From assembly GCA_019356535.1 (NCBI GenBank), contig CP037918.1:1332315-1396314 (forward strand): a DNA stretch of 64,000 nucleotides. Direction: 5' to 3'. The DNA is from Chromatiaceae bacterium. GTDB taxonomy: Bacteria; Pseudomonadota; Gammaproteobacteria; Chromatiales; Chromatiaceae. The translations under genes and the position numbers were made by a program. Position 1 is the stretch's first letter. Every line of letters starts with the position of its first letter. The notes under the pieces are model-generated. The model made no database searches and was not told where the DNA came from. It saw nothing but the letters and a program-made list of their open reading frames with translations. Positions 3,463 through 25,550 of this stretch are shown here, in pieces.

Positions 3463-4021
3463 TTATTGCACATCACGCATCAGTGGCATGCGGGCCAGCA
3501 CGAAGTCCGCATCCGCCTCCGGTACGCTATACGCTTCGCAGTAGGATGAATACGACCGCACCTTGTCCGCGATCTGGGCCATGACCTCGCTGACGCGTCT
3601 TGGCCCCAGTCCGCACAAACGCCCGAGGTCACGCAGCGCATTCGGTGTCGGCCGATGCCCCGCGCTGCCAAAAATCAATACATGTTCCCGGTTGTCGTTC
3701 ACGTCCGGCAGGATGTCGAAGGCCGGCGTCAATCGCCATCCCCCGTCGCGCCACTGCATGGCAAAGTTCTTCAGGTGGTCATCGGTATTGGCCAGACAGG
3801 CGTTCAGTACGATCTGCCGAAACAGTTGCTCGAGATCCGCCTGTGGCGCCGATGAGACGTTCGCGACCCCCTGGATTACGTCGCAGTAACCGACCTGGTA
3901 GTACCCACGCGCATCCAACAGGGTTTTCAGCGACAGCATGTGCCGACGCCCCCCGGCGGGCGTCACATCGAAACGCTCGAGCAGGAGTGCCTTGCGATCC
4001 GCAGCGCTGACCACGCTTCGT
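3463..4021 (-). pseudogene. hipA: HipA-family kinase toxin, C-terminal half only
   Basis: LLLERFD, NTDDHLKN and LTPAFD motifs; reading frame runs directly into CRISPR repeat 1; no N-terminus or hipB. Confidence 0.85.
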
Positions 4022-6282
4022 GTCTTAATCCCCTTTCTATCGGGTCTGCCTTTCTACAGATGGCGACTATGTAATTGCCAGCAAGACTCGGGTCTTAATC
4101 CCCTTTCTATCGGGTCTGCCTTTCTACTTCCGCTATCCTGAAGTCTCAAGAGAAGAAAGCGTCTTAATCCCCTTTCTATCGGGTCTGCCTTTCTACAGAA
4201 GGATATCAGGAACTGTTCAAACTGATCTGGTCTTAATCCCCTTTCTATCGGGTCTGCCTTTCTACTGCACAAAGCACCGAGCACTGCAAGCACACAATGT
4301 CTTAATCCCCTTTCTGTCGGGTCTGCCTTTCTACGAGGCGAGGCAATGAAAACGTACAGCTTAGAAGTCTTAATCCCCTTTCTATCGGGTCTGCCTTTCT
4401 ACCGAACTGGTTAACCTGTTCTTCAAAATCGGGATGTCTTAATCCCCTTTCTATCGGGTCTGCCTTTCTACGCGGATATGAGCGCGGATCGTCAAAACTT
4501 GTTGCGTCTTAATCCCCTTTCTATCGGGTCTGCCTTTCTACGTGGAACGAAGATGAATTGCTTGCCCTTCGTGGTCTTAATCCCCTTTCTATCGGGTCTG
4601 CCTTTCTACGACGTGTACACGAAGAAAGTCGGCGACAAGACCGTCTTAATCCCCTTTCTATCGGGTCTGCCTTTCTACATCACGACGCCAGCGCCCAGGG
4701 CGCAATCCAATAGTCTTAATCCCCTTTCTATCGGGTCTGCCTTTCTACCCACCACCCGGTGGGCCGCGGGTCGGTCGTCATCGGTCTTAATCCCCTTTCT
4801 ATCGGGTCTGCCTTTCTACATCCAGGAGTTGTCCGACAAGATCCGCTCGCTGCGTCTTAATCCCCTTTCTATCGGGTCTGCCTTTCTACGCTATTGCAGC
4901 GTTCGCTATCACGGATAGCGAAGGTCTTAATCCCCTTTCTATCGGGTCTGCCTTTCTACGAGAGTGCAGTCTTCGATGCGTATCCCACAATGACGTCTTA
5001 ATCCCCTTTCTATCGGGTCTGCCTTTCTACTGAACGCCTATTCGATCTGACTCAGATCGACGGTCTTAATCCCCTTTCTATCGGGTCTGCCTTTCTACCA
5101 GAGTTGAAGAAAAGCTCGATAGAGCTGGTCGTCTTAATCCCCTTTCTATCGGGTCTGCCTTTCTACATGGACGCAGCAATAAAAATGCCTGAATCGTTAC
5201 GTCTTAATCCCCTTTCTATCGGGTCTGCCTTTCTACAACACTGAGAATGAAAGCGCGAAGCGTGCTATGTCTTAATCCCCTTTCTATCGGGTCTGCCTTT
5301 CTACTCCGAGCGTACTGAGCGCAAATTTGAAGATGGTGTCTTAATCCCCTTTCTATCGGGTCTGCCTTTCTACAGCGCAATAAAATGACAGAGCGCGCTC
5401 AGAAATGTCTTAATCCCCTTTCTATCGGGTCTGCCTTTCTACCTAAAATTGGTGATAAAAACTTTACATCAATTATGTCTTAATCCCCTTTCTATCGGGT
5501 CTGCCTTTCTACCTATTAAGATGGCCCGATATGGTGGTATGCATTCGTCTTAATCCCCTTTCTATCGGGTCTGCCTTTCTACTCTGGGCCTATGAAAACC
5601 GCTGGTTCGCCGACGGTCTTAATCCCCTTTCTATCGGGTCTGCCTTTCTACACCTGTGGGTGGACGACGTGCCGCCAGAGATGGCCGTCTTAATCCCCTT
5701 TCTATCGGGTCTGCCTTTCTACAGGTCGAGTGGACAAATGATGGCGTCGAAGCTGTGTCTTAATCCCCTTTCTATCGGGTCTGCCTTTCTACAAAAAGAA
5801 AAAGTAATTAGCTGTTCTTCTATATGGTCTTAATCCCCTTTCTATCGGGTCTGCCTTTCTACAGCTTCGTCGTCTCGCGTTGCACTCTGCGCTATCGTCT
5901 TAATCCCCTTTCTATCGGGTCTGCCTTTCTACTGCAATTCTGAGCAACATCGACGCAAACACCGGTCTTAATCCCCTTTCTATCGGGTCTGCCTTTCTAC
6001 GATTTGAGCGGCGCAATGGAGAACATCGCCCATATGTCTTAATCCCCTTTCTATCGGGTCTGCCTTTCTACTCAGGAGCGCGTATTACAGCGTTTATCGT
6101 CACGGGTCTTAATCCCCTTTCTATCGGGTCTGCCTTTCTACACATCATCACCGAAAACGATAGCGCGAAACGCGCGTCTTAATCCCCTTTCTATCGGGTC
6201 TGCCTTTCTACCCCACGGGATCTCTGTATGGGCATACAACGGGAACGTCTTAATCCCCTTTCTATCGGGTCTGCCTTTCTAC
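4022..6282 (-). CRISPR. CRISPR array 1: 33 repeats, 32 spacers (32-35 nt)
   Basis: 36-bp repeat, minus strand GTAGAAAGGCAGACCCGATAGAAAGGGGATTAAGAC; the ATTAAGAC 3' handle is typical of type III; one variant repeat at 4299; leader at the high-coordinate end. Confidence 0.99.
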
Positions 6283-6380
6283 CGTATGGCCATGTTTTCC
6301 CTTATTATTCATGCTGTTGCATCGGCAGTTAGGAAAACTTTTCGGCATTTCGAAGCTGTCCGGTGTTATCGTCTTCGGCA
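6283..6380 (-). promoter_or_regulatory. Leader of CRISPR array 1
   Basis: AT-richer non-coding stretch between the cas2 stop and the first repeat; shares a ~30-bp motif with leader 2. Confidence 0.75.
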
Positions 6381-6683
6381 TCACTCGCCACCTTCAAGGA
6401 TAGCAGACCATTCCGCTTCTTCGCCCAGGAACACGTCTTCCGGGAATCGCGTTTTACCGATATGAAGGCCGTCTGCCTGGTTCTGGAGCGGGTATATCCT
6501 GATATCGTCTTCATTGGTGATGACGGCGCGCAGATCGGCTACAAGCGCCTCCAGACGGGTTCTGCTGAGTTCTGCCAGGAACACCGAGTACTGCAGGGGT
6601 ATGCCGTAGTTCTTGCACGTCTTGTGGACCCGCACCAGACGACGGGGGTCGGCAATGTCGTAGGAAACCAAGTATCGCTTCAT
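6381..6683 (-). CDS. cas2: CRISPR-associated Cas2 (second copy)
   Basis: YLVSYDIADPRRLVRV...LQYSVF; ATG at 6683 overlaps the upstream stop (ATGA). Confidence 0.93.
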   Translation of the reverse strand: MKRYLVSYDIADPRRLVRVHKTCKNYGIPLQYSVFLAELSRTRLEALVADLRAVITNEDDIRIYPLQNQADGLHIGKTRFPEDVFLGEEAEWSAILEGGE

Positions 6684-7468
6684 GGGCAATCGCGGGTGGC
6701 TGTCCAGAGGTGAAGACGCGCCAGGGCCCGGCGGCCTGTCTCGTCCAGGGTGGGTTCGAGCTGCTGGTAGAACCAGGTCAGATGACGCTGCCGTTGCCGT
6801 TCATCATCGAAGGCCTTGCGGGCCGCGGGATAACGACGCAGCAACCCGGCCCAGTGAAGCAGAATCTTCCACTGCAGGATACCGGCGAGATCGGTGGGCA
6901 GGTCGATAATGCCACCGGTCAGGTGGGGAGTCTGCGCGCCGATGCCCAGGCGCATGAGCCGTTCGGTGGTCCAGGCAAGCGTCCTGGCGCGCAGATGTTC
7001 AATGCTGGCGATCACTGCCTGGCGTTTGAGCTGCCTGCCCACCGTCTCCAGGAGCAGCCGGTGTACCCGGTCGGGATCCGGCAGATGCCCCAGCCAGGGA
7101 TAGTGCCTTGCCAGGGCGAGCAGTTGCTCCCTCTGGTGGTGCGCGCACCAGTCGGCATAGCGCTCGGTGCCGTCGGCGCGGGCTAGAAGCTCCTCCAATT
7201 GCTGTACCAGCGAAGAGTGCTCGCCGCCGGCACCCAGCATGCGCGCCACAATCGTCCCTCGATCGTCGATGAAGATCACCGGGATGCCCTTGCCCAACAG
7301 GCAGAGCAATGCTTCCTGCTCCCAGAGGACCGCGGGGTGGCTGACCACGCGCGAGAGCCGTTCGACCGGATACAGCCGATCGGCCTCGTCTACGCACCGC
7401 ACCAGCAGCGCCGGTCCGTCCAGAAAGACACGGGCACCCTTCCGGCTTTCGAGATAGAGCGGTTTCAT
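6680..7468 (-). CDS. Divergent Cas1-like protein lacking catalytic motifs (262 aa)
   Basis: Cas1-type N-terminal beta domain (LYL...GARVFLDGPALLV...YPVERLSRVV...ALLCLLGKGIPVIFID..G); no EG..A..Y, no N..L..GY, no catalytic His; ATGA overlaps on both sides. Confidence 0.75.
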   Translation of the reverse strand: MKPLYLESRKGARVFLDGPALLVRCVDEADRLYPVERLSRVVSHPAVLWEQEALLCLLGKGIPVIFIDDRGTIVARMLGAGGEHSSLVQQLEELLARADGTERYADWCAHHQREQLLALARHYPWLGHLPDPDRVHRLLLETVGRQLKRQAVIASIEHLRARTLAWTTERLMRLGIGAQTPHLTGGIIDLPTDLAGILQWKILLHWAGLLRRYPAARKAFDDERQRQRHLTWFYQQLEPTLDETGRRALARLHLWTATRDCP

Positions 7469-8430
7469 GGGGTGCTGCTCCCTGTCGGCCCGAAGGTCGC
7501 GAATCGCCTGGCCAGGGTCATGGCGGCCCGGCGCAGGGCCCGCCGCGCCGGCTGTATGCGGCATTCATATGCCTGGTAGAAATGGCGCCGGCCCGCCTTG
7601 GACAACAGGCAGGCCTCGCCGTCCCGGGTGAAGTGCCTGGCGGTGATGAGTTGTTCACGGCACAAGTCCCAACAAAGGCGGTCGACCTGGGGGCGCAGCG
7701 GCTCGATCATGTCGGAGGCGAGCGACTCCCGACCGTACGCCGGTTGGTGATAGAAACCCAGGTAAGGGTCGAGGCCCGCCATCCAGACGGCCTTCACCGC
7801 CTCGCCATGCAGCAGGGTGTAGCCCAGCGACAGCAGCGCGTTGAACGGGTCCCTTGGGGGCCGCCGGTTGCGTCCGGAAAACCCGAGCGATGGGGGAAGT
7901 ATCGCTGCCAGCCCGGCAAAATAGGCCTGTGCCGCACCACCCTCCATCCCTAGCAAGGTCTGGACAGTCGGCTGCGGCTGTCTCGCCAGCCTCAGACGCG
8001 CCTCCCGCACAGACAAGATGGCCTTTCGCAGGGCCAGGCGGGCATCGCCCCGCGCCTCGGCGGCCCGTTCCAGAAACTGTTGCTGGCTGCGAAGCTTGAG
8101 CAACACCAGACGCTTACCCCACCCCGTCCGCCAGGCCAGATCGTCATACGCGCGGGCCTGGCCCAGCCGACGCCGGGCATCGTTGTGCAGAGGCCCGGTG
8201 AAACTACCCTGGAGCCGGTGGTGCCTGCCCGACAGGGTACTCAAGATGACGCCGTTGTCCGCCAGATGGCCCAGCACGCTGGTGTCGAGCGCCACCGTGC
8301 CGCGGATCACGATCCGGTCGAGCAGGTGCAGGGGCAGATTGCTGCGCCGTCCTTCCCGATCACGGATCACGATGCTGGCACCCTCACGCTCGATGGACGC
8401 CACCTGCCGATCCAGATACAAGGTGCTCAT
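7465..8430 (-). CDS. cas1: CRISPR-associated endonuclease Cas1
   Basis: LGMEGGAAQAYF, RPPRDPFNALLSLGY, GFYH and SLASDMIEPLRP are all intact; no RT domain. Confidence 0.97.
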   Translation of the reverse strand: MSTLYLDRQVASIEREGASIVIRDREGRRSNLPLHLLDRIVIRGTVALDTSVLGHLADNGVILSTLSGRHHRLQGSFTGPLHNDARRRLGQARAYDDLAWRTGWGKRLVLLKLRSQQQFLERAAEARGDARLALRKAILSVREARLRLARQPQPTVQTLLGMEGGAAQAYFAGLAAILPPSLGFSGRNRRPPRDPFNALLSLGYTLLHGEAVKAVWMAGLDPYLGFYHQPAYGRESLASDMIEPLRPQVDRLCWDLCREQLITARHFTRDGEACLLSKAGRRHFYQAYECRIQPARRALRRAAMTLARRFATFGPTGSSTP

Positions 8431-8436
8431 CCGCGC

Positions 8437-8721
8437 CTATCCCACGTAGAACCAGTCCGGGTCTGCCGGCGCGACGGCCTTGCCCAGCACGCGCGATTGC
8501 ATGCTCGGGTCGTGACGGATGAGCAGGAAGCGATCTTCTGTCTCATCGAGCAAGGCGCGCATTTCCTTGATAAGCCGCCAGTATTCGGCCGGTGTCAGAT
8601 AGCACTCGAACACCGACTTCTGGCGACCGCACGCATAACCCTTGAGGATCTTCAGGGCCTTGCGCAGGCGACGTGGGTCCGACACGTCATAGGCGGCAAT
8701 GTAGAGTCTGCGTGTGCTCAT
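8437..8721 (-). CDS. cas2: CRISPR-associated Cas2
   Basis: YIAAYDVSDPRRLRK...QKSVFEC; RBS GGGAG. Confidence 0.95.
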   Translation of the reverse strand: MSTRRLYIAAYDVSDPRRLRKALKILKGYACGRQKSVFECYLTPAEYWRLIKEMRALLDETEDRFLLIRHDPSMQSRVLGKAVAPADPDWFYVG

Positions 8722-8818
8722 GATGTCTGCTCCCTTGCGCTATCGGTGAGAGTAGCGCCGCCTGGGCTCCCGGGAGTGAATGGCAAGCTTGCGGAAGCCT
8801 GTCCGCTTGCTTTGGTCC

Positions 8819-9073
8819 TCAGTGAATTCGGCGTGTTGCACTGTCCGGGTCCGACGATTCGTCATCGGGGAAGGCCTCGTTCATGGCGTCGAACATCAGG
8901 TCCGCTGTCCTGAAGCAGGCCGCTACCACGTCTTCCGCGGGAACAGTGGAAAAGGCGGGATTGCGCAGCATTGCCGCCATAGCCCGGTTTGCGACTTCCC
9001 AGATCAGGTCCGATTTTCTCTGACGCATCGGATTCTCTACCTCGGTTCCGGCGACGGGGTGATCGAGGCTCAT
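8819..9073 (-). CDS. Small hypothetical protein upstream of the adaptation operon (~84 aa)
   Basis: GAGG then ATG (MSLDHPVAG...); helical-looking DLIWEVANRAMAAMLRNPAF segment; no family recognised. Confidence 0.5.
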   Translation of the reverse strand: MSLDHPVAGTEVENPMRQRKSDLIWEVANRAMAAMLRNPAFSTVPAEDVVAACFRTADLMFDAMNEAFPDDESSDPDSATRRIH

Positions 9074-9291
9074 CGATGACCGTTCCTCCAGATGCGCAAG
9101 CGACAAGGGCTGGCCATCGACGCCCGCTGCCCATTCTCTGCGTTCGCAATTCGTTCTTGGGAGACGGCAGGCTTGCCGACAACGCCCGTCGCACCAGACT
9201 GTTCTAGGATTCCCATGCGCAACAGGCAATGAAACACGGAGCATCAGCCGTGAACCCGTGCAGCTATTCCAGTGACGGCGATTGGGGCGAC

Positions 9292-9888
9292 ATGCTGGAC
9301 GACCAGGGCCCGGAATTCTGGGAGCATGTGTGCTGGCCCGCCGACGAGCTCATAGAGCATGATCACAATGACGTCTCCCCCGATGATCAGGAAGACCCCT
9401 TCTATGCATACGCCTACGAGGTCGTTTACAAAAAGGATGACAGCACCGAAGAACATGCTCCACCCTTGGCACTGCAGCAGTCTTCCGACGCCAAACAGGA
9501 GCGCCTGGAACAGAACCTGGCCGACTGGCAGCACTGGGCGCAACTCGATCACTTCGCCAGCGAGCCTTCCCCGGTAGATATCGAAAACCATTGTCAGGGA
9601 TCGTCACCTCTGGCCGCTTCGGCAGATCGTCGGGAGCAAATCCTGGCCTGGCTCCAGACATCGGACCTTGCGCGCCCATTTCGATCGCGAAACGGCTTTT
9701 TCATCCGCGGCGGTTCGACCGTCACCCTGCTCAATGGCAGAGAGCTGGACGCCATCCTTTGGCTGTTCTCCGAAGGGATCATCGGCGGCGCCCGTGTCGG
9801 AGGCTACGAAATCGTCTACAACGACGCCAAATCGCCCTGGGGAGAGAGCCTGTCCTTCTTCCCCTGTCGGGTGCCGGCGCCTTTCTGA
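9292..9888 (+). CDS. Hypothetical protein with an acidic N-terminus (start could be 9229)
   Basis: Open frame with a D/E-rich N-terminal half and a globular-looking C-terminal half; no family recognised. Confidence 0.6.
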   Translation: MLDDQGPEFWEHVCWPADELIEHDHNDVSPDDQEDPFYAYAYEVVYKKDDSTEEHAPPLALQQSSDAKQERLEQNLADWQHWAQLDHFASEPSPVDIENHCQGSSPLAASADRREQILAWLQTSDLARPFRSRNGFFIRGGSTVTLLNGRELDAILWLFSEGIIGGARVGGYEIVYNDAKSPWGESLSFFPCRVPAPF

Positions 9889-9939
9889 TGTCGTCCTTGG
9901 ACAAGGCTCCCGCCAGACATAACCGCGGCAGCACCCATG

Positions 9940-10290
9940 GGGTGATAACTCGAACAGGGTTGTTACGATCGCTAGTGCCAATGGCGGCCTGCACGCCATC
10001 GATCCTTCGGCCCTGCTGGACTGGGGTTCCCGGGTTCAACGATATCCTCGTCATCGTCGGCCTGAATGCCACTCCCTGGTCTTCCGCCTTGGCCTTCCCG
10101 GAGGGGATACCCTGAGACGCACCACCGGGCTGGTCCCGACCTGGCCAGTCACTGGTCGGCAAATCCCGGGCATACCCATCGATCATATGCCTGTATCGCC
10201 CCACTGGCACATCATCGACCAGGATGTGGGGCCGGACATCGGCTCCGGCCACGATCCCACCATCGCTCGTCCACCCCTGGAAAGTTTCTA
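9940..10290 (+). pseudogene. Possible degraded PilY1/PilC beta-propeller fragment
   Basis: Fragments across frames (ASANGGLHAID, PSALL, DILVIVGL, W..IDQDVGPDIGSGHDPTIAR) occur in the order of PilY1 motifs GANDGMLHAFD, PSAVL, TVLVGG, LWE..DLG...P.IAR; weak. Confidence 0.25.
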
Positions 10291-10416
10291 GTTCATTAAC
10301 TTCCTTGTATCAGATCTCGCCTGGGAACCTCCGAACAAGCTCCGATCCCCATTGCATGGAGGAGAAGAACGTGGATTTTTTTCAGGTATGTAATGACCCC
10401 CTAGTTTTTGCACACC

Positions 10417-11260
10417 CTACGCAGCAATCTGCGCAGGCACCTGGTAGCCGAGTGCCTGATGGGGCCGCTCGGTGTTGTAGTGGCGTATCCAACGCCCGAT
10501 CACTTCTCGTGCATGGCTGATCGACTCAAAGTGGTGATGCCATACACATTCTTCTTTCATGGTGCGGATAAACCGCTCGATCATGCCGTTCTGCTCCGGG
10601 CTATATGGCGTAATGAACTCCCTGGGTCAATCCATAGCCCCTGACCGTAGCCGTATAGCGATGGGAGGTGAAGACCAGGCCGTTGTCGCTGCGTAGCTTC
10701 AACGGCCCGGATACGCGTCCCAGATGACCAAACCGGTGGATCAGCGCCTCTTCCAGTGCCGCTTCCGCTGTACAGGCATTGCCATGGGCCGCCAAACGCC
10801 ATCCCAGCAGTTCCCTGCTGGCACAATCGATGACCAGTGCAATATGGCACCAGCGATCACGGCCACACCAGATCCGCGCCAGGTCCGTGGCCCAACGTTG
10901 ATCCGGCGCTTGGGCAACCGATGGCAACGCACTCACCCGGGGACGATGCCCTTTGGGTCGCTTGCGTACCTGCCACCCCTTGAGTCGGCAGATTCGCTGT
11001 ACCACCTTGCGGTTCCAGCCCAGTAGAAACGCGATGCGACGGTAACCGTAGGTCGGAAAGCGCTCAATGATGGCTTTCACCTTCTCGGCTTTCGTCTCGT
11101 CAACCACAGGCTGCCTCACCGCAGGCCGGTAGTAGTAGCTCCTGCGACTCACCCCCAGCCATCGACAGAGCTTGGCAACGGAAACCTCATGGCCTTCTGC
11201 TTTGAGCTCCGCCTGCACCGACTTGACTAGCTTTCTTCCTCGTCGAGCAGGCGCTGCCAC
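10417..11260 (-). pseudogene. IS3 transposase OrfB (DDE), frameshifted
   Basis: WATD, LRSDNG; an extra base in the C run at 10620-10622 shifts the final EFITPYSPEQNGMIERF...YNTERPHQALG segment out of frame. Confidence 0.85.
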
Positions 11261-11538
11261 TTTTTTATCGCTTTGAGCTCCAGTTCCTTCTCGCCCAAGG
11301 CCGCATATGCCTCCGCCAGCTTGCGCTCGTACTGTTCCCGAAGGTCTCGCGGGCGGGTTCGGAAGTTGTTCTCCATGCCCTGAATGCCTTCTTCCACCCA
11401 GCGCTCTACATCACCGGGGGTAAGGTCATGTTGCCGAGAAACCTCTGCGACCGTTGTCTTGCCTTTGAGAATATCCAGTACGACCTGCGTCTTGCGCTTG
11501 GCTGTCCACCGCTTGATCTCGTTTTCTTGCTTGTCCAC
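11227..11538 (-). CDS. IS3 transposase OrfA
   Basis: RWTAKRKTQVVLDILKGKTTVAEVSRQHDL HTH; overlaps orfB at an A-rich shift site. Confidence 0.88.
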   Translation of the reverse strand: MDKQENEIKRWTAKRKTQVVLDILKGKTTVAEVSRQHDLTPGDVERWVEEGIQGMENNFRTRPRDLREQYERKLAEAYAALGEKELELKAIKKWQRLLDEEES

Positions 11539-11640
11539 GTTGCCCTCCTTTCTGCACTATAGCTTGTGCAGATTTGGAGGGGGTCACTTCAGGTATTCCC
11601 TTACTACTTGCAAAATGCGACAGCCTTGACATCGTCCGCC

Positions 11641-13122
11641 ACCTTAACCCCCTTTATATCGGGTCTCAGTTACTACGGCGAGAAGGAGTACACGCTGCGC
11701 ATCGAATACAGTCTTAATCCCCTTTATATCGGGTCTCAGTTACTACACTTCAGCTAGAGGAGGAAGCTCATGGAGCGAGTCTTAATCCCCTTTATATCGG
11801 GTCTCAGTTACTACTTTGACTTTCTCGAACTGGCAGAACTTCACGGGTCTTAATCCCCTTTATATCGGGTCTCAGTTACTACCGGAAATTGGACGCTGGG
11901 ACAGCGCGTTTCCTGGTCTTAATCCCCTTTATATCGGGTCTCAGTTACTACGATCCGCATTTCCAAAGTAAGCAAGCTTGACGGGTCTTAATCCCCTTTA
12001 TATCGGGTCTCAGTTACTACAGCAATTGCACTCGCGCTCGACAGAATCGAAGTCTTAATCCCCTTTATATCGGGTCTCAGTTACTACACCGCAGTGGGCG
12101 AAGACCCTCGCACCGAGCAGTCTTAATCCCCTTTATATCGGGTCTCAGTTACTACCTCGACGGCAACCAGATCCCCCTCAGCGTCTTGTCTTAATCCCCT
12201 TTATATCGGGTCTCAGTTACTACCTCAGATCCGAAAGAACCTCACTGGGATGCACGTCTTAATCCCCTTTATATCGGGTCTCAGTTACTACAGAGAAGCG
12301 TGCGGAGTCTTTCGCGCAAGCACGCGTCTTAATCCCCTTTATATCGGGTCTCAGTTACTACGCCATCGACACCGCCGTTGCGCTGTGGGGATACGTCTTA
12401 ATCCCCTTTATATCGGGTCTCAGTTACTACGGATTAACTATAAAAACAACGTCGCGTCCGGAGAGTCTTAATCCCCTTTATATCGGGTCTCAGTTACTAC
12501 TCTCGCGGTTCGTCTTCCGCGGCTTCGTCGAGGGTCTTAATCCCCTTTATATCGGGTCTCAGTTACTACGACGTGCTACGACGAAGAACTCATTGAAGCG
12601 TGTCTTAATCCCCTTTATATCGGGTCTCAGTTACTACCGGTTGGCAATCGGGCTGATCACGTTCATCAGTCTTAATCCCCTTTATATCGGGTCTCAGTTA
12701 CTACCGGAGTGCGCGCGAAAATCGCGCACGTCAACGTCTTAATCCCCTTTATATCGGGTCTCAGTTACTACGTCGTCGATAACGGGTATGAGCACACGCT
12801 GCGCGTCTTAATCCCCTTTATATCGGGTCTCAGTTACTACACCAGAAGATTTTTGCAGGCGATGAAATCATCAAGCGTCTTAATCCCCTTTATATCGGGT
12901 CTCAGTTACTACACAAAAGGACAAGGAAAAGATGGCGAAGATGCGCGTCTTAATCCCCTTTATATCGGGTCTCAGTTACTACACCAGCCTCCTGATAAAT
13001 ATGTACTGAAAAGGGGATGTCTTAATCCCCTTTATATCGGGTCTCAGTTACTACAAAACAACAAAATGACAGAACGTGCTCAGAAGGTCTTAATCCCCTT
13101 TATATCGGGTCTCAGTTACTAC
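11641..13122 (-). CRISPR. CRISPR array 2: 22 repeats, 21 spacers (31-36 nt)
   Basis: 36-bp repeat, minus strand GTAGTAACTGAGACCCGATATAAAGGGGATTAAGAC; the degenerate trailer repeat at 11641 fixes the orientation. Confidence 0.99.
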
Positions 13123-13267
13123 ACAGCCCCCTCAAAATTCAGCTTACATTTCAATGTGTTACGAAGGGGGTCAGAAAAAATTCCGGCAATCCGGAAGCTG
13201 TCTTGCTCAAGAGCAGAACGGAACCCCGACATCCTTGCTTCCAGAATAGTCGTCCGTTTCGACTGCA
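13123..13267 (-). promoter_or_regulatory. Leader of CRISPR array 2
   Basis: Non-coding and AT-richer; shares a motif with leader 1 at nearly the same distance from the first repeat. Confidence 0.75.
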
Positions 13268-15343
13268 TCATCGGGACATCGGCTCTTCGGCCTGTTCCAG
13301 CACCCACCCATAGACCTCCCTGTCAACGGCCTTCAGCAACCGCTCACGCTCCTCCGTTGGCAGAAAGGCATGTGCAAACCCCTGCTTCACGATCGCCAGG
13401 GCCTCCCACAGGGAGAGTTTCGGCCACAATACCGCGGCCTTGAAAAGCTCGCCGGTGGCATCGGTGCGACTGATGCCGGGGTTGTCGGTGCACAGGGCCA
13501 AGGGCACCCCCTCTCTCCAGTAGTGCTGCAGCGGATAGGGTCTGTCGCCACCGTAACCGACCACCTCGTCGTTGGAGCTGGGGCACAGTTCGATACAGAT
13601 ACCGCGGTCGCGAAAGCGCTGCAGCAGCTTGTCATCGTCGCCCAAGGTCAGGCCATGGCCGATGCGGTCGGCGTGCAGCCGGTAGGCGGCTTCCCAGATC
13701 TTGTCAGAGGGGGTGCCTTCGCCGGCATGGATGGTGATGGGCAGGCAGGCGCGAAAGGCCGGTTCGAAGTGTCGGGCAATCTCCAGCGGTGCATGCGTGC
13801 CGTCCTGCATTTCGTCGCCCGCCAGGTCCAGGCCGACGACGAAGCCGTCCAGTGCCTCCCGGGCATCGACGGCCAGTTGCACCACCGCCTCCAGGCGATC
13901 GGCTTGCCTGCGGTCGGCAATGACGATGAAGCGCAACGTGATGTCGGAATATTCTCGCGCAATGGCCTGCAGTTGCCGCAGAAAGCCGATCTGTGCCTCG
14001 CGGTCCCGGCGATATTTCTGCGGGCTGCCGCGCAGCTCAAGGTAACGCAAACCTTCGTGGCGGGCCGCCTGCAACAGCGCGTGCATGTAAGCCTGCAGCG
14101 CGGCAGGATGGCCGAGAACCGCCGAGCCGGTCAGTTCCCCGGGGCGTTCGTAGGCGGCAAAGCCCCGCCCACTCTTTTGCAGGCCATGACGGGGGCTGGT
14201 GACATCGAAGAGGTTGTACTGCAACTGTTCGTCGTCGGCCTCCACCAGCAAGGCGGCGGCATTGTGTGCACGCTCGCCTGCCTTCAACTGCCGGGGCCAC
14301 TCCCAGTCCCATTCCCGGTTGGCCAACAGGGGGCGGACCCGATCCAGGGCCCGTGCCCGTTCCCTTTCGGTGAGGCTGTCCCAGATGGCGCGGCCGACCC
14401 GGCGTTGCGCGGCGATGTCGAGGCAGCCCCCGATATGACGATGCAGGTCGGCCTTGGGCAGACGCCGCAGCGCTTCGGGGTCCACCTCGGCCAGCCGTGT
14501 GTGGCGCAGGCGCTCGATCAGCGCCGGGGGCAACCGGTAGAGCGAACGCCAGTTTTCATGGTGCTCGCCTCCAGCCAGCAGTTGCAGGTAGTTACCGAGC
14601 AGCCGCGAGCCTTCGCGTTCCCTGCGTTCGATCTCGCGCGGCAGGCTCGGCTCGGCGGCCCGCCAGGTGAAGGCACCCCCTGCCGCCGGCAGGGGATAGC
14701 TGGCCGCAGTCAGCCTCGGCTGGCCCGACTCCTCGATATCGAGCAGCTCGCTGCGCTTTCCCGCACCAACCACCAGAGGAACCAGCCCCTTGCAGTCGTC
14801 CACGCTCAGGGGCCGGGTGAAGGTGTCCGGTGCCGCCTGCTTCATGGGCTCGCTCATCTGGTTGAACGGCGGGGCGATCACATGCAGCAGGGCGGCGCAC
14901 CCGATCAACATGCCGGCGCGTTGCAGGTCGGCCGACATGGTCTTGCGTCCACCGGCCAGCGAGAGGTAGAGGCGCCCTTCCCTGCCGGTGCGTTCCGAGG
15001 CCAGCAGCACGGCACGGTAGATCAGTTCGCGCACCTGGTCACCCGCGACCTGGTCAGCGACATCGGTCACCTCGGCGGTGCGCCATACCCGCAGCGGCAG
15101 ATCGGGCGCGATCAGATCACGCCAGCGTTCGAGCTTTTTCAGCCCTTCATCGAGCTGAGTGTCGTCGGTGGTGCAGACCCACAGTTCGTCCACTGGGTGC
15201 AGCTCGTGTTTCCGGCGCAGGCTCTCGATGGCCGCATGGTCGGGGTGATCGCAATAGATGGGGCAGCGCACGGGATCGAGGAGCCCGAAGGCCTCGGGGA
15301 TCACCGCCCAGGTCTGGCCGAGGGTGCAGAGGAGGATGTTCAT
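13268..15343 (-). CDS. cad1: CARF-adenosine deaminase fusion (Cad1/CAAD-type cOA-activated effector)
   Basis: N-terminal CARF (ILLCTLGQT, SLAGGRKTMS); ADA motifs DLHRH, TIHAGE, RIGHG, ELCPSSN, TDNP. Confidence 0.92.
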   Translation of the reverse strand: MNILLCTLGQTWAVIPEAFGLLDPVRCPIYCDHPDHAAIESLRRKHELHPVDELWVCTTDDTQLDEGLKKLERWRDLIAPDLPLRVWRTAEVTDVADQVAGDQVRELIYRAVLLASERTGREGRLYLSLAGGRKTMSADLQRAGMLIGCAALLHVIAPPFNQMSEPMKQAAPDTFTRPLSVDDCKGLVPLVVGAGKRSELLDIEESGQPRLTAASYPLPAAGGAFTWRAAEPSLPREIERREREGSRLLGNYLQLLAGGEHHENWRSLYRLPPALIERLRHTRLAEVDPEALRRLPKADLHRHIGGCLDIAAQRRVGRAIWDSLTERERARALDRVRPLLANREWDWEWPRQLKAGERAHNAAALLVEADDEQLQYNLFDVTSPRHGLQKSGRGFAAYERPGELTGSAVLGHPAALQAYMHALLQAARHEGLRYLELRGSPQKYRRDREAQIGFLRQLQAIAREYSDITLRFIVIADRRQADRLEAVVQLAVDAREALDGFVVGLDLAGDEMQDGTHAPLEIARHFEPAFRACLPITIHAGEGTPSDKIWEAAYRLHADRIGHGLTLGDDDKLLQRFRDRGICIELCPSSNDEVVGYGGDRPYPLQHYWREGVPLALCTDNPGISRTDATGELFKAAVLWPKLSLWEALAIVKQGFAHAFLPTEERERLLKAVDREVYGWVLEQAEEPMSR

Positions 15344-16554
15344 TGCCGGGACTCTGGCGGCAAGAGTTGTTCGAACAAGGTCTCGAGGAGATCGCGCATC
15401 GCCTCCGGGCTGGACAGCGCCCGCTGGACCTCGTCGCCCTTGGGCTGGCTCCCGTGGGCCACGGCGTTGCGCAGGCGCCGCAGGCTGTCATAGGCCCGGT
15501 AGCGCGGGGTGCGGGGTTGTATCGCCCTTTCCCTTGTTTCGAAGCGTTCCCGGACACTTTCACGGTGTGCCATGTTGTCCGGGTCGAGGGTCTTGTCCTC
15601 TTCGCGTTGCAGGCGGGTGGTGAAGGCCTCCCAGCCGGTCAGGGCCGCTTCGAGAAAGCGCTCACGACGCAGATATTCCAGAGCCAGTTCACGCTGGCGC
15701 AGGTAGTAGTTGTCCTGGCGGGCCCAGGCGAGACGCCGGCTCAGTTCTTCGCGGAACAGCGCCAGCGCCGGGTCGTCCGTGCCTTGTTCGAGGCGTTCGA
15801 GCACCTGTCTCAGGAGCGATCTGGCCTGACCGATGCGGTTGACCGTTTCGAGGAAGGCTGCCCGCCGCAACAGTTCGCCCGTGTCGCCCCCGATCAAGGG
15901 ACCGAAGACCCCGTAATCGCCGGTCTGGCCATACACGGACAGCGCCTCGAGCCAGTCAGCGATATCGAGCAGGCCGGCCAGATCGTGCACGGACGCCCGA
16001 CCGGTATCCGGATCGTAGGCGCCGTACCAGATGTGCGCGATCTTCGCGCTCCGCACCTTGCGCAGGTGCAGGGCCGAGAGCAGTGTCAGCATGGGCAGGT
16101 GGCGAAAGCCGTGGGTAATGTCCAGATCCACGCGGTCGCCTTGCCCTACTTCTTCGGCCAGATCCCGCAGCAGACCCACCTGCTCCCGGGAGCTGTTGCA
16201 GTACGAGATCAGACGCAGGCGCACCTCGCAGCCCAGACGGTCCGCCAGCACCGGGGCGAGGCGGTCGAGCCTCTCCTGGGTGACGGCTTGCCGCTCGGCC
16301 TCACCCACCAGCGCCAGGCGATCTTCCTCGGCCGCATCACCCAGCGCGATATCGCCTTCGAACAGGTGATCCCACATGCTGCCCGGCGTGCCCAGCACCA
16401 CCAGCCGGTCTGGCCGGAGCCGCCGCTGCAGCGCCCAGCCGAAGAAGGCCAGTGGCTCACAATCGGCGCCGTCACCGAAATCGTAGCTGGTGGTGCGGTA
16501 GCCCTGTTCCCCGCGAGGCGTGCGGCCGAGAAAGGTGATGAGGATGTGGGGCAT
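15340..16554 (-). CDS. csx1: Csx1/Csm6-like CARF-HEPN ribonuclease (TM1812 family)
   Basis: ITFLG, Y..TSY.F, DITHGFRHLP; HEPN RNAVAH. Confidence 0.92.
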   Translation of the reverse strand: MPHILITFLGRTPRGEQGYRTTSYDFGDGADCEPLAFFGWALQRRLRPDRLVVLGTPGSMWDHLFEGDIALGDAAEEDRLALVGEAERQAVTQERLDRLAPVLADRLGCEVRLRLISYCNSSREQVGLLRDLAEEVGQGDRVDLDITHGFRHLPMLTLLSALHLRKVRSAKIAHIWYGAYDPDTGRASVHDLAGLLDIADWLEALSVYGQTGDYGVFGPLIGGDTGELLRRAAFLETVNRIGQARSLLRQVLERLEQGTDDPALALFREELSRRLAWARQDNYYLRQRELALEYLRRERFLEAALTGWEAFTTRLQREEDKTLDPDNMAHRESVRERFETRERAIQPRTPRYRAYDSLRRLRNAVAHGSQPKGDEVQRALSSPEAMRDLLETLFEQLLPPESRQ

Positions 16555-16564
16555 GTGGACCTCG

Positions 16565-17845
16565 TTATTCGGCTTCCAGTTTCGCGAGTTCGTCGGCAAT
16601 GCCCTGCTTCTTCTGCTTTTTGCTCCAGGGCAGCGCCTCCAGGGTCTGGCGGATCAATCGGGCGGCACTCCGACGATGTACGGGGTCTTCCCAGGCCTGT
16701 GCGGCCTTCAGCAGCTCCAGGCGCTTTTGCGCGGTCTGACAACCGGCCGACAGCAGCCCCTTGCGTTGTTCCTCTTCGCAGGTCTTGCGCAGCGCCTCCA
16801 GCGCCTGTTCCTCGGGTGACAGTTGCGCGAATGCCTGTTGCCTGGCCTGCTCCTCCCGCTCCCGGGCCGCGGCCTCGTCAAACCGCATGGCGCCGTAGCC
16901 CACCGCGGTCTTGGCGCCGAAGCCCAGCCAGTCGAAGGCGTGTTCGAAGGCCTGTTGCAGCAGGCGCCGCCAACGGTCGTTTTCGGCCAGTTCCGGTGCA
17001 ATGCGGCGCAGGAAAGGCAGATCACACACCACGTGAAAGGTGAAGCGCGAGCCCGGAGGCACGGTGAGGAAATACACGGGAATCGGCTGGCCGGATTCGT
17101 GGGGCGATTCCCCTTGCATGTAGTAATGGCTCTGGTGGCCTGTCATCACCTCCACTATCAGCTTGTCGCCTTCGATGCCCGGGATCACGTCCCAGAAGCT
17201 CAGGGCGCCCCGGCGGGCGTCGTTGCTGTCTTCCTTGCCGAACAGGGCGTCGATGGCCGTTGCGGTCCAATCCGATTCCATGTCCCATTCAGCGGCAGCA
17301 ACGCCGGCCAGTTCCCGTGCCGCCTGGCGCAGCACCCCCTTGACCCCGCTGCCCGGCAAGTAGGGCAAGCCATAGGGCCAGAGAAAGGCAAAGCCGTTCT
17401 CCAACGGGTGTTCATTGCCCAGGCCCGTGGTGAAGGGTGCCACCGCCTCGCCATCGACCACCATCACCTCGTCGCCGGTGCAGGCGGTCGATGCCAGCGC
17501 CTGCTGGCGAGCGACCAAGGCCTGCATGCGTACCTTGTCGTCACCACTCAAGCCGCTGACCCGTTTCCAAGCCGATTGGGCACCCTGGTCGTTCTTGTGC
17601 CATAGCGCCGGGAATCGTCCACGCGCCTGTTTCGCGTGCGAAATGGCGGCGTCCATCCCCTGCTGTTCCAGGATCTGTCCAAGTTCCCGTCCTTGCGGAC
17701 TCTTGGCGCCAGCCATCTTCCGGATCTGTTTTTCCTGGTCTGCTCGCTCGGTCCAGATCGGCAGATACATGGAGAAGCGCATCCCCGGCGAGGCTTCCGA
17801 CAGGTCTTGCTTGCCGATGTATTCGGGTATCGCTGCGATGGGCAT
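16565..17845 (-). CDS. cmr6: Type III-B RAMP Cmr6
   Basis: TTGLGNEHPLENG, PYLPGSGVKG, GFGAKTAVGYG. Confidence 0.95.
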   Translation of the reverse strand: MPIAAIPEYIGKQDLSEASPGMRFSMYLPIWTERADQEKQIRKMAGAKSPQGRELGQILEQQGMDAAISHAKQARGRFPALWHKNDQGAQSAWKRVSGLSGDDKVRMQALVARQQALASTACTGDEVMVVDGEAVAPFTTGLGNEHPLENGFAFLWPYGLPYLPGSGVKGVLRQAARELAGVAAAEWDMESDWTATAIDALFGKEDSNDARRGALSFWDVIPGIEGDKLIVEVMTGHQSHYYMQGESPHESGQPIPVYFLTVPPGSRFTFHVVCDLPFLRRIAPELAENDRWRRLLQQAFEHAFDWLGFGAKTAVGYGAMRFDEAAAREREEQARQQAFAQLSPEEQALEALRKTCEEEQRKGLLSAGCQTAQKRLELLKAAQAWEDPVHRRSAARLIRQTLEALPWSKKQKKQGIADELAKLEAE

Positions 17846-17846
17846 C

Positions 17847-20285
<2,439 letters not shown>

Positions 20286-20289
<4 letters not shown>

Positions 20290-23198
20290 GCGGCATCCTC
20301 CCTGGTGTTGCGGTGGGCGGCCCCGGATACCCGGGTTTCGCGGGCCAGAAACTCGGCCACGGAGAGGAAGTTTTCGATCCAATCGAGGCGTTCATCCCGC
20401 CTGGCATGAATGATCGCCTGCTCGACCAGCGATCGGGCGAGCCCAGGCAGCTCATAATAGTCGCGGGTCGTCTTCTTATTGCACTGGCGTGCCAACTGAT
20501 AGGCCAGCAATTCGGCTACCATGGCACCGTCTCCCTCGGGCTCGGGCAGGTCACGCAACCAGAGCGCGCTGTTGTAGACGGCGCGACGCGATACGGACGG
20601 CTCAGCAAGGAAATCGCGTAGCCGCAGCAGCAGCCGCAACGGTTCGCCCCAGCGGGCAGTCAGGTGCAGCGCTCCGCCCGCCCGCTTGACGATGGTGATG
20701 GAGAAGGCATCGCGACCGCCCTCCTCCTTGGCGCGTTTCTCCGCCGCACGCAGCTCGCGCAACACTGCGCCCAATGGGGCCTGGTGGTGGGCGATTACCG
20801 CACCGCAGCTGGCCGTCGCCTGCTCGCCCATCAGCCGTAACAGCCGGCCTCGGTGCCGCACGAAGCCGTTGCCTTGCCGTTCGAAGCCGAGCTCGGCCTC
20901 CAGGCCAACCGCTTCGGGTGCTATCCCCGAATAGGCGGCGCGCGCCGAAGCCATCGCCGGCAACAGATCGATCACTGGCAGCATGGCCATCAGGTCGTCG
21001 CCGCCGGCATACAGAACGCGTCCATGGTGACGACGCTCGATCACTTCGGGGGCAAGTGTCAGCGCAAAATGGTTGAGCGCCTCGGAGATGGCCATGTGGC
21101 GTGACGGGCTGGGGGCGCGTTTCTCCCTGGCATAGGCGACAAAGTTCGGATCGTCCTCGAAGACGCGCAACGCGGCGCGGATCTGTGGATGGAAGCTGGT
21201 CTCGTGGGCCAAGGCCACCTCTCGGTCGGCCGACAACCAAGCTCCCATGCGGTCGCCGTCCATCAGCAGCAGGCCGTAGTAGGCTTCCGGTTTATGGCCA
21301 AGCCACGCTTCCAGTAATCGGGCTGCCTGGCGCTGTTGTGTTTCGTCCTCCGCTTCGCGCATCTCTTCCAGCCACCCTGGCAGGCGACGCAGCAACGCGC
21401 CGTCGGGATGATCGCGCAGTGCCGCCGAGAGCTTGCGCGGCAGTGCGACCCGCTCGTCGTGGCTGGCGGCGATCTTCTCGCGCAGTGCTCGGGAGAACTC
21501 ATGCCCGGCATTCAGCGCATTGGCGATGGACCCGGCCAGCGCCATGGTGTGAGTGCTGACCACGAAACGGTTGAAACCCTGATCCACCAGATCACCCAGC
21601 TCACGCACGAACAGCGTCGGCCAGAGGCGCTTGAGCGTGTTGAGTGCACCGAGGTGTTCGCCCTTTCTGGCCCAAGCGGGCTTATTGTCGGCGACCTTGG
21701 TCCACAAGGTCTCTTCGTGCTCGCCTTCCCTGAAACCCTTGTCTTGACGACTCTTCCTCTTGCCCTGCGGCAGGTCAAGCTGATCACAATCGGTGGTGAG
21801 CCACTCGGCCTCGCCTGACAGCGAATCGCGCCAGCCTTTCTGTTGCAGCTGGGCGAAGGGTCGAGCCGACTTGGTCGCAGCCACCAGGCGCTCCAGCAAC
21901 TCGTGCAGGGCCGGGTAGAGGCTGCCGGGATTGGGCCGCCAGAACCATCCCTGCTCCAGCTCGATGCCGCCGGATAGCAACCGCCAGGCCTCGCTGCCTA
22001 GATAGCCGGGCGGGCTGGACGCGAAGAAGGGCCGCATCGCCTCGGCCAGCCGAGTGTCGCTGGCCGCTACCCTGCCATCTTTGTCGGTTCCCACCAGCGA
22101 CCAAGGCACCGCAGCCCAGTGCACTTCTGGGAAGCCGGCGAGCTGCTCGCGGATCTGCCGATAGCCCGGCAGCTTGGGGTCGTCACCGATGCCGGCTGCC
22201 TCCAGCAGCAGACGGAAGGCCTCGTCGGCCCGCTCCCGCGCCCAGTCGCGAACCCGTTGGGTGATCGTCTCGGCAATCTCGCGCGCCTGGCCCGCCGGTA
22301 CGATGGCAGTGAACCGGTTGGGCAACGCGGCGCCGAACAGCGGATTGGCATCGGACTTGGACCGGGTCCAGTCACATCCCTCGAACAGTTCCGGGCGCAG
22401 GCCCATGGTCTCGCGTAACCACAGATCGATCTGGGGCACGCCACGCAGGCGCGGAAACAGGATCGCCTCGGGGCCGAGTCGTTCGCAGACCACCCGCATT
22501 GCCTCCCAGCTCATGCGCGAGAGCAGATGTGAACCGGCCCAGAGGTCGGAGGTGGTGCGAGCGCTGGCGATGAACTCCTGTACGGGGCCGAGGGAGACGG
22601 CCAGTAACGCCGGGCCACCCTCGCCACTGACAAAACAACCCGCCAGCGCCACAGTCAAATCGAGATGGTCGTGGATACTGTGATCAGGTACCCGAGTATC
22701 GGCCGGCAGTTGCGCCCAGAGGCTCTTGATCTGCTCGGCCTCTACCTCAGGGCCAAAGCGCCAGAAGGCAAGCGCGGTCTTTTGCAGGTCGTCCGGGTGT
22801 ATCAAGCCACGCAGGTGATCCAGTGCCAGCGCCTTGGCCTGTTCCGGTGTAATGTCGCTCAGCCGGCCGATATCGAAGGCTTCACCGGTGAGAGGATGGA
22901 CGATCACCGGACTTTCATGGAAGCGAACCTGCTGCCAGCGCGGATAGCCATGCTCACCGTCACGGTTCGGAAAGGCAGCGCGATCGGCAGCGGAGGCCCA
23001 GTGATCGGCCTGTTTCACCGCGTGGGCCACCATGGGCGGCAAGTCGCTCAGGCCCAGGTCTTGTCTCAACGTGGCCGAAGTACCTCCCTCGTGCCCCTCG
23101 GCGGAACGCATCAGGATCAGCGCCTTCTCGATAGGATCGTGCAGGCGAGCGGCGAGCTTAGTTTGCCAGAGCTTATTATTGTCCCTTTGATCGCTCAT
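20286..23198 (-). CDS. cas10: Cas10/Cmr2 large subunit with intact palm domain
   Basis: LHDP, DTRVPDHSI, DLWAGSHLLS, MDGDRMG, YAGGDDL. Confidence 0.97.
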
Positions 23199-24256
23199 GA
23201 TTGACTCCTCTTCACTCGCTTTGCCTCATCAAGATAGGCATGCACCTGCGACCAGACCTCTTCGATGGCACCGAGGTCGGGCTGGAACTGCCGCGGCGGC
23301 CTGCAGGGGAGGTGGAAGATCCGACCGTACAGCCTGCCATCTTCCCCCTGCACCACCTTGAAACGGAGGCTGTTGGGGAGGCGGGCATTACGATCCCACC
23401 GTTTGGTCCCGTGGTTTGTTACCGGATAGGCCAACCAATGTCGGTCTTCCACCTGGCGATGCGGCGGCTTTTCCTTGGGAAAGCGGAAGCGAGTGCGCAG
23501 GTCGATCTTGATCTCCGCCAGCCGCCTCATGAGCTGCTGCCAGTCGTCGAAGGGATCGGTCTGCCAGATCAGGACGCCCTTTCCATCCTTGCCGATGGCA
23601 TGGGGCCAGTCACGATCCAGACATTCGCGCCAATCACGCAGCGGATACTTACCGTCTGACAGGTCGCCGGCGAGGGAGAGCGAGCCCCAACCATTGCGCG
23701 AGCGTCCACCCAGCGCGCCAAAGGCGTCGATCAAGAACAGCGCCCTGTCGAGCAACTCGGCGTCGACAGCAGGGAAGGCCAGGCGCAGGGTGGCCTGTTC
23801 GCCTGCCTGGATGGCGGCGTTCGTCTTCAGGGCCGTCCGCCTTGACTGCCTGTCGTAAGTCAGCGGACCAAACCCGAGATAGAGGTCAGCCCCAACCGAC
23901 CGGCCTACCTCCGGATGGCTCACTTTCCCGATCTCATTCCATTCCGAACGCCTCAGCTTGCCGGTGCTCCATTTATCCAGCCGCAACCGCACGCGACTGC
24001 GATTGCCGCTGCCGTCGGCGGCAGTGCCGAACAGCGCCCCCTCCTGCTCACGCAGGCTCCGGTAGTCGTTTGAAAAACCATTGGCTTCCGCCCAGGCCAC
24101 CCGCCACCACTCGCGCAGCAGGTGCTTGAAAGGTGGCGCGCGCCACTGGCCGTCCTGCTCGGCGTTGCCGAGAAAGGCAGGTGTAACGAAGCGGATCGTG
24201 AACTGCCGGGTTTCCATCCGGCCTTGAAGCGATTTGGTCATGGCTTGGGCCGTCAT
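23195..24256 (-). CDS. cmr1: Type III-B RAMP Cmr1
   Basis: FVTPAFLG, LREWWR, LFG, ALGGRSRNGWGSL. Confidence 0.94.
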   Translation of the reverse strand: MTAQAMTKSLQGRMETRQFTIRFVTPAFLGNAEQDGQWRAPPFKHLLREWWRVAWAEANGFSNDYRSLREQEGALFGTAADGSGNRSRVRLRLDKWSTGKLRRSEWNEIGKVSHPEVGRSVGADLYLGFGPLTYDRQSRRTALKTNAAIQAGEQATLRLAFPAVDAELLDRALFLIDAFGALGGRSRNGWGSLSLAGDLSDGKYPLRDWRECLDRDWPHAIGKDGKGVLIWQTDPFDDWQQLMRRLAEIKIDLRTRFRFPKEKPPHRQVEDRHWLAYPVTNHGTKRWDRNARLPNSLRFKVVQGEDGRLYGRIFHLPCRPPRQFQPDLGAIEEVWSQVHAYLDEAKRVKRSQS

Positions 24257-25437: not shown

Positions 25438-25550
25438 CGGATCGCTTACCTTCCCTCTCCGTCGAAAACGGTGCGGGGGGCGTCCATGCGCTTGCCCTGG
25501 CCCCTTCCCGGACCGCCCCGCTGCGGAACAGTGTGCCCGGCGACCTCCAT

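Follow-up and report, generated by a model that had tools for sequence, protein, structure and literature searches.

The window, that is, the whole stretch of 64,000 nt of Chromatiaceae bacterium DNA analysed here (contig CP037918.1), contains two CRISPR arrays together with an adaptation module and an interference module. Array 1 (4022–6282, minus strand) comprises 33 repeats of 36 nt, GTCTTAATCCCCTTTCTATCGGGTCTGCCTTTCTAC as written on the plus strand, and 32 spacers of 32–35 nt, while array 2 (11641–13122, minus strand) comprises 22 repeats of 36 nt, with 5 differences from the repeat of array 1, and 21 spacers. The adaptation module (6381–8721, minus strand) consists of cas2 (6381–6689), a divergent cas1* (6680–7564), cas1 (7465–8430) and a second cas2 (8437–8721), after which an IS3 transposase follows; profile matches were strong for Cas1 (2e-77) and for the two Cas2 proteins (2e-20 and 3e-15), and no reverse transcriptase domain was detected in the module. 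Profile matches also defined an interference module with accessories of cOA signalling (13268–26495, minus strand). Its first part encodes a CARF-adenosine deaminase, a Csx1/TM1812-family protein, Cmr6, a small ORF, Cmr4 and Cmr3, and the remainder encodes Cas10/Cmr2, a RAMP protein at the Cmr1 position, a Csm6/NE0113-family protein and Cas6. The matches for Cas10/Cmr2, Cmr3, Cmr4 and Cmr6 were TIGR02577 (1e-62), Cas_Cmr3 (2e-66), TIGR02580 (3e-62) and TIGR01898 (8e-31). The small ORF (17932–18357) sits at the Cmr5 position and had no family match. The Cas10/Cmr2 protein carries a GGDD motif at residue 732 and an N-terminal HD dipeptide at residues 20–21. Since Cas10/Cmr2, Cmr3, Cmr4 and Cmr6 are all present, and Cas1 and Cas2 adjoin regular arrays, the locus can be assigned by gene content to type III-B with an adaptation module of its own. 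In the annotated part of the window, we found no type I or type II genes, including a Cas3 or Cas9 effector, and the only effectors there were the Cmr module and the cOA effectors. An Rfam search of positions 3800–13500 returned no match.

Several features place the leaders of both arrays on the right, so that the crRNAs would be transcripts of the minus strand. The leftmost repeat of array 2 is degenerate, marking that side as the trailer end, and the array 1 leader (6283–6380, minus strand) shares the motif GACAGCTTC...TTTTCYnAC with the right flank of array 2 (13123–13267). Moreover, the left side of array 1 adjoins a truncated hipA ORF and has no room for a leader, and the repeat read on the minus strand ends in ATTAAGAC, which we take to be the usual 8-nt handle. 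A right-hand leader makes the spacer at 6142–6175 the second-newest of array 1 and the spacer at 5237–5268 the 15th from the leader, in agreement with the ages that a sequence-only reading of this DNA had given them.

These two spacers form the pair on which we focused (pair 1). The older (5237–5268, plus strand; AACACTGAGAATGAAAGCGCGAAGCGTGCTAT) and the newer (6142–6175, plus strand; ACATCATCACCGAAAACGATAGCGCGAAACGCGC) align over 29 nt without gaps and with 22 identities, exactly as the sequence-only reading had claimed, in coordinates as well as letters. In an all-against-all comparison of the 53 spacers of both arrays, the pair scored 15 (matches minus mismatches), which exceeds the maximum of 12 reached in 200 shuffles of all 53 spacers. 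It also exceeds everything in a cross-genome null, where none of 94,652 spacer pairs from nine genomes, each compared in both orientations (189,304 comparisons), reached 13. Counted along the alignment, the seven mismatches are at positions 1, 5, 8, 11, 14, 23 and 26, and six of them share one codon phase (P = 0.0064), as had also been claimed, which suggests that the target is coding. The newer spacer starts 5 nt and ends 3 nt earlier than the older one, and the two differ at 24% of nucleotides (7/29 positions), while 32 of the 33 repeats of array 1 are invariant. Because the boundaries are shifted and the sequences have diverged between near-identical repeats, the data support the view that homologous protein-coding sequence was captured twice, independently and at different times, from two variants that had diverged. 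The shifted ends, the codon-phased divergence and the array order thus uphold the earlier claim of repeated sampling by diverged relatives. The same observations bear on the alternative that one spacer was duplicated within the array and its copy then drifted by mutation. Exact spacer duplicates do occur in related arrays (G112 and G019), but drift would have had to produce codon-phased divergence of 24% and shifted ends while leaving the intervening repeats untouched, and we regard this explanation as refuted, its probability being vanishingly small.

The peptide encoded at the target is not fixed by the pair alone. On the plus strand the two spacers read NTENESAKR and ITENDSAKR, with five synonymous and two non-synonymous codon differences (E/D and N/I). 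The minus-strand frame that shares the wobble positions is also open, reads ARFALSFSV in both spacers, and renders all six phased differences synonymous and none non-synonymous. Five of these six differences lie in four-fold degenerate codons of the minus-strand frame, so its fit is weak evidence. On these counts the opposite-strand frame fits slightly better than the plus-strand frame, and TEN[E/D]SAKRA is one of two admissible readings. The peptide proposed earlier therefore stands as to its codon counts but not as to its uniqueness. Should the minus-strand frame be the true one, this crRNA would have the same sense as the mRNA, and the retention of pair 1 could not be put down to selection for antisense guides.

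Signs from the wider set of spacers favour the plus strand as the sense strand of the targets in general. The purine content of the spacers on the plus strand is 0.558 (p = 1e-5), and the 473 spacers of the repeat family contain 29 Shine-Dalgarno-plus-ATG configurations on the plus strand against 13 on the minus strand and 11 in shuffles. The plus-strand frame was also the better fit in most of 14 diverged spacer pairs, and counting of open frames in the spacers gave no strand signal (120 vs 120). Together with crRNAs transcribed from the minus strand, sense-strand signs on the plus strand would give the arrangement that an RNA-targeting type III system needs.

A second diverged pair lies in the same locus. 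The older member of pair 2 (5374–5406, plus strand), which contains the 10-nt palindrome GAGCGCGCTC, is two spacers away from the older member of pair 1, as had been noted from the letters, and the newer member (13055–13086, plus strand) is the newest spacer of array 2. The two share 25 of 32 positions in the same register (offset 0; score 18), and NKMTERAQK on the plus strand is the only frame of this pair that is open and synonymous, the wobble-sharing minus-strand frame containing a TGA. A third candidate pair (11677–11710 and 12772–12804; 18/24 identities) lacked codon phasing and scored only as high as the shuffle maximum, and was rejected. The older members of both accepted pairs sit inside a run of seven consecutive low-GC spacers (5099–5546, plus strand; 21–48% GC vs 64% for the host; permutation P = 0.004), a putative old episode. 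All four spacers most recently added to array 2 are likewise low in GC (P = 0.006), the newer member of pair 2 among them, and the two pairs are nearly equally diverged (76% and 78% identity). These patterns are consistent with the host having met one low-GC invader lineage twice, long ago and again recently, each time in the form of a different relative. The two-episode picture proposed in the sequence-only reading thus gains from the clustering and from the like divergence, and we infer it from these patterns.

We then asked how surprising two such overlaps are. The model assumed that one lineage had contributed about 7 old and about 5 new spacers, and required an overlap of at least 20 nt, with a probability per pair of 27/T for a target of T nucleotides. 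The probability of two or more overlaps was 3e-4 at 40 kb, 0.004 at 10 kb and 0.016 at 5 kb, rising to 0.08 at 2 kb and to 0.08–0.24 for target spaces of at most 2 kb. Two overlaps being improbable at larger T, the effective target space would therefore be a few kilobases or less. Chance alone, with a large phage genome sampled uniformly, could be entertained if a single 40-kb lineage and one strand had supplied all 53 spacers (P = 0.24 for at least two overlaps). Against this, the spacer GC range of 21–77% points to many sources and disfavours such a single lineage, at 40 kb the 12 low-GC spacers give a probability of about 1e-3, and related arrays show the same excess of overlaps, so that we judge simple coincidence very improbable. 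The earlier claim that the overlaps are unlikely by chance for a large phage accordingly holds under uniform sampling (3e-4 at 40 kb) but loses much of its force otherwise: type III capture is strongly non-uniform (PMC13575424, PMC8860593, PMC7515739), related arrays are rich in overlaps, and directed re-targeting is not needed to account for the coincidence.

The family-wide counts come from the array repeat family, which is present in many genomes of the bacterial family. A further 420 spacers were taken from eight of these genomes, giving a total of 473 spacers in nine genomes. In at least three of the eight genomes, the arrays share a contig with a weak match to the Cas10/Cmr2 model (below the family cut-off), located in ORFs of 672–1002 aa. 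Within genomes, we found 18 overlapping, non-identical pairs with a score of at least 13 that were co-oriented and none in opposite orientation, and between genomes no overlapping pair reached this score. One related genome (G358) alone has 14 overlapping pairs in 101 spacers, including triple matches on one site. Overlap offsets range from -16 to +12 across the family, compared with 0 and -5 for the two pairs here, so the register would not be set by a fixed PAM, and the data are consistent with an acquisition system that has none. Strong hairpins occur at many of the resampled sites, such as GCCACAGTGTT...AACACTGTGGC and GAAACGGGC...GCCCGTTTC in G358. The same genome also has identical-sequence overlaps in adjacent spacers, which look like double captures at hairpins within one episode. 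Hence, with respect to pair 1, the sequence-only reading was right about repeated matches by diverged relatives but overstated how special they are, given that such overlaps recur in related arrays.

Hairpins mark pair 1 as well. The newer spacer ends in a perfect hairpin, GCGCG-AAA-CGCGC, with a DNA-fold energy of -6.7 kcal/mol (z = -5.2; 0 of 200 shuffles as stable), and the 3' half of the older spacer forms an imperfect one, AGCGCG-AAG-CGTGCT (-4.0 kcal/mol; shuffle p = 0.05). The hairpin common to both can be written GCGCG-AAR-CGYGC, and two of the seven differences fall within it, one changing the loop and the other turning a stem G-C into G-T. Using a shuffle test with DNA folding parameters (p <= 0.05), we classified 10 of the 53 spacers here and 90 of the 473 spacers in the nine genomes (19%) as hairpin-prone, as against 5% of random host 33-mers and 9.2% of viral or metagenome loci (binomial P = 4e-11 vs the higher control). 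The share was 37% among members of overlapping pairs vs 18% among other spacers (Fisher p = 0.016). This is a moderate enrichment: a notable hairpin is absent from most spacers, and also from the newest member of pair 2 (13055–13086).

Protospacers were sought in a range of collections. Searches with blastn of both whole arrays against 50,697 phage records and of array 1 against 72,556 plasmids gave only chance matches. Eight codon-degenerate patterns, built from pair 1 in both of its frames, from pair 2 and from three spacers nearby, had zero or chance matches in IMG/VR. A pattern scan of metagenomes gave 5 matches and two pattern scans of 185,579 species genomes gave 0 and 4, none of which agreed with the spacers outside the pattern. 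None of the 53 spacers targets the host genome itself, and none had an accepted protospacer among 380 genomes of the family. The best match there, 25 of 27 nt to the chromosomal hflK of one genome (G388) and located at the conserved IITENRS motif of that gene, has E = 0.004 per genome over 380 genomes and was set aside as chance; the host's own hflK matches the spacer at only 21 of 34 positions. Concatenated spacer peptides in the plus-strand frames, searched at three query lengths against 5.8 billion proteins (candidates of 55–1428 aa), returned nothing at E <= 10. The phage, plasmid, IMG/VR, metagenome, genome and protein collections searched thus yielded no protospacer.

Type III capture has been studied directly in other systems. 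In the type III-A system of Streptococcus thermophilus, capture is biased towards hairpin-forming DNA (Zhang et al. 2021, PMC8860593). It is highest immediately downstream of an early phage promoter, whether or not interference operates, a hot spot that natural arrays also display (Noble-Molnar et al. 2026, PMC13575424). In Thermus thermophilus infected with phage phiFa, the type III spacers of survivors map to a short early region, and their antisense orientation to transcripts is due to selection (Artamonova et al. 2020, PMC7515739); fewer than 2% of spacers were common to replicas, and no sequence preference was seen (PMC7515739). Our favoured reading, to which we assign a probability of roughly 0.6, is that pair 1 represents two captures at a hairpin-bearing, presumably well-transcribed coding hot spot, brought about by biased capture together with selection for antisense guides. 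Cas1-Cas2 would have captured the same coding stretch of about 30 nt on separate occasions, from an older variant of the invader and then from a relative diverged by about 24%. As the type III-A and Thermus work suggests, type III Cas1-Cas2 may prefer hairpin-forming, transcribed (early, promoter-proximal) invader DNA without a PAM, and infection may then retain only those spacers whose crRNAs are antisense to well-expressed transcripts. Capture bias and selection together could shrink the target to a few kilobases or less and make resampling from successive relatives likely. The double capture would then reflect a small and uneven usable target space of the III-B system rather than direction by the old spacer, and the newer spacer would restore the full complementarity that the older one had lost.

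Selection might also act alone, with uniform capture and either few protective sites or a small invader of a few kilobases (plasmid, satellite or small phage). Two overlaps would be unsurprising in a target space of 2 kb or less, the Thermus bias has been ascribed to selection of resistant clones (PMC7515739), and the co-orientation of all 18 overlapping pairs is what selection for antisense guides predicts. Selection without capture bias nonetheless leaves unexplained why spacers are enriched in hairpins, and more strongly so at resampled sites, and in S. thermophilus the early-gene bias arises at capture, independently of interference (PMC13575424). We therefore consider it unlikely that selection suffices.

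A further explanation is that the old spacer itself directed the new capture. The old crRNA would pair partially with the diverged transcript and focus capture there, either because Cmr binding and ssDNA cleavage by the Cas10 HD domain at the transcription bubble free local DNA for Cas1-Cas2 or because stalling does so. Cas10 here has the HD dipeptide and GGDD, new spacers overlap old, partially matching ones at two separate sites, and genomes often contain many overlaps of their own. In pair 1, three of the seven mismatches fall at crRNA positions 6, 18 and 24 from the 5' end, which are every-sixth positions. In type III complexes, the every-sixth positions of the crRNA are unpaired (Csm and Cmr structures). 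Mismatches at such positions mean that the old guide may still bind or retain activity, which keeps priming alive without favouring it over a hot spot. Type III systems also tolerate mismatches to a high degree, and type III priming is listed as an open question (PMC9048733). On the other side, priming is not known from type III systems, interference plays no part in the S. thermophilus hot spot (PMC13575424), an association with hairpins is not predicted, and the adjacent identical-sequence overlaps in G358 resemble double captures of one episode. The overlap statistics do not discriminate between a hot spot and priming-like capture; on the whole evidence, we hold the latter to be quite improbable. 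The more specific proposition that both diverged pairs are the natural footprint of a priming-like type III adaptation, in which memory is renewed at the same coordinates, seems to us more doubtful still.

The hot-spot reading can be set against the systems that it resembles. Like the S. thermophilus III-A system, the locus here has no detected RT, its spacers are enriched in hairpins, and the same short region has been sampled repeatedly in natural arrays; PAM-less capture and mRNA-antisense guides, as in that system, would be compatible with the array content here. It differs in being III-B (Cmr), in its cas2-cas1*-cas1-cas2 module and in belonging to an unrelated bacterium of 64% GC, and the evidence here is array content rather than an acquisition assay. 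The published hairpin and promoter biases concern type III-A, whereas the present system is III-B with an unusual four-gene adaptation module. The Thermus system also lacks an RT, and its surviving spacers are concentrated in a short early region, nearly all of them being antisense to transcripts, but resampling of the exact site and an association with hairpins are what we see here. Primed adaptation of types I and II (Datsenko 2012; Fineran 2014) relies, according to a review, on DNA targeting by Cas3 or Cas9 and on a PAM, and it spreads new spacers over kilobases (PMC9048733). An old, partially matching spacer coexists with a newer one from the same invader region in those systems as it does here; in contrast, the new spacer here lies on the same 30 nt, and the annotated part of the window has no type I or II genes.

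Taken as known type III behaviour, the resampling in pair 1 is real but largely ordinary. Pair 1 nevertheless offers a clean natural record of a CRISPR memory renewed at one site as the invader drifts. The site of about 35 nt, with its conserved GC hairpin and two natural variants, may also serve as a substrate for the question of type III priming raised in a 2022 review (PMC9048733). Together with the family-wide counts, these findings would modestly extend the hairpin and hot-spot bias known from type III-A to III-B arrays with a cas2-cas1*-cas1-cas2 module.

The older of two spacers in array 1 that are diverged captures of one coding site, 5237-5268, places the wobble positions of that site at multiples of three, numbering from the crRNA 5' end. 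Every sixth crRNA position is left unpaired in type III complexes, so half of these wobble positions coincide with unpaired ones. Three of the seven mismatches that separate this spacer from the newer variant (6142-6175) lie at crRNA positions 6, 18 and 24, and would thus be predicted to carry no pairing cost for the older guide.

We further compared the members of the second pair (5374-5406 in array 1 and 13055-13086, the newest spacer of array 2), which differ at 4 of 11 nt upstream of an in-frame ATG and at 3 of 21 nt downstream of it, each of the latter at a wobble position. From this pattern, the ATG may be the start codon of the target gene (MTERAQK...) and the spacer may span the gene's 5' end, a putative placement that resembles reported type III-A hot spots. 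Three other spacers (4335-4366, 11747-11778 and 12913-12946) carry, on the plus strand, an ATG preceded by a Shine-Dalgarno-like motif and, by this sequence feature, look like captures across translation starts; the same arrangement was found on the minus strand in no spacer of the window. A third similar pair lies within array 2: the oldest spacer (11677-11710) and the fifth-newest one (12772-12804) share 18 of 24 nt and the common ending ACACGCTGCGC. The mismatches in this pair showed no codon phasing and its score reached only the shuffle maximum, and this similarity may be due to chance.

Around the arrays, a 183-aa minus-strand ORF (3463-4014) left of array 1 matches HipA only in its C-terminal part (HipA_C profile positions 59-210), and its 5' end stops 8 nt short of the first repeat, which starts at 4022 and is perfect. 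Apparently, either array 1 lost its trailer end together with the hipA N-terminal part, or the CRISPR locus was inserted at hipA. Between the adaptation module and array 2 lie a stretch of about 1.7 kb after the second cas2 (8800-10520), containing only short ORFs, none with a Pfam match, and then an IS3-family transposase (10601-11538). The minus-strand gene at 13268-15343 encodes a 691-aa fusion of CARF-like NE0113 and adenosine deaminase domains (A_deaminase, 6e-43), which is predicted from these domains to be a Cad1-like cOA-activated deaminase; within this type III-B locus, it adjoins effectors of the Csx1 and Csm6 families.

Across 473 natural spacers that belong to this type III-associated repeat family and come from the window arrays and from loci L013, L014, L016 and L033-L038 of relatives, overlapping pairs were co-oriented rather than opposite by 18 to 0, and hairpin-forming sequences were enriched two- to four-fold. 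Neighbouring spacers of L033 (G358:C181:10500-19800, in a related genome) have 18 identical nt of hairpin in common (ACGTGGTTTGAAAAACCACG). With 14 overlapping pairs among 101 spacers, including one site captured three-fold, this 102-repeat array records site resampling at an unusually high density.
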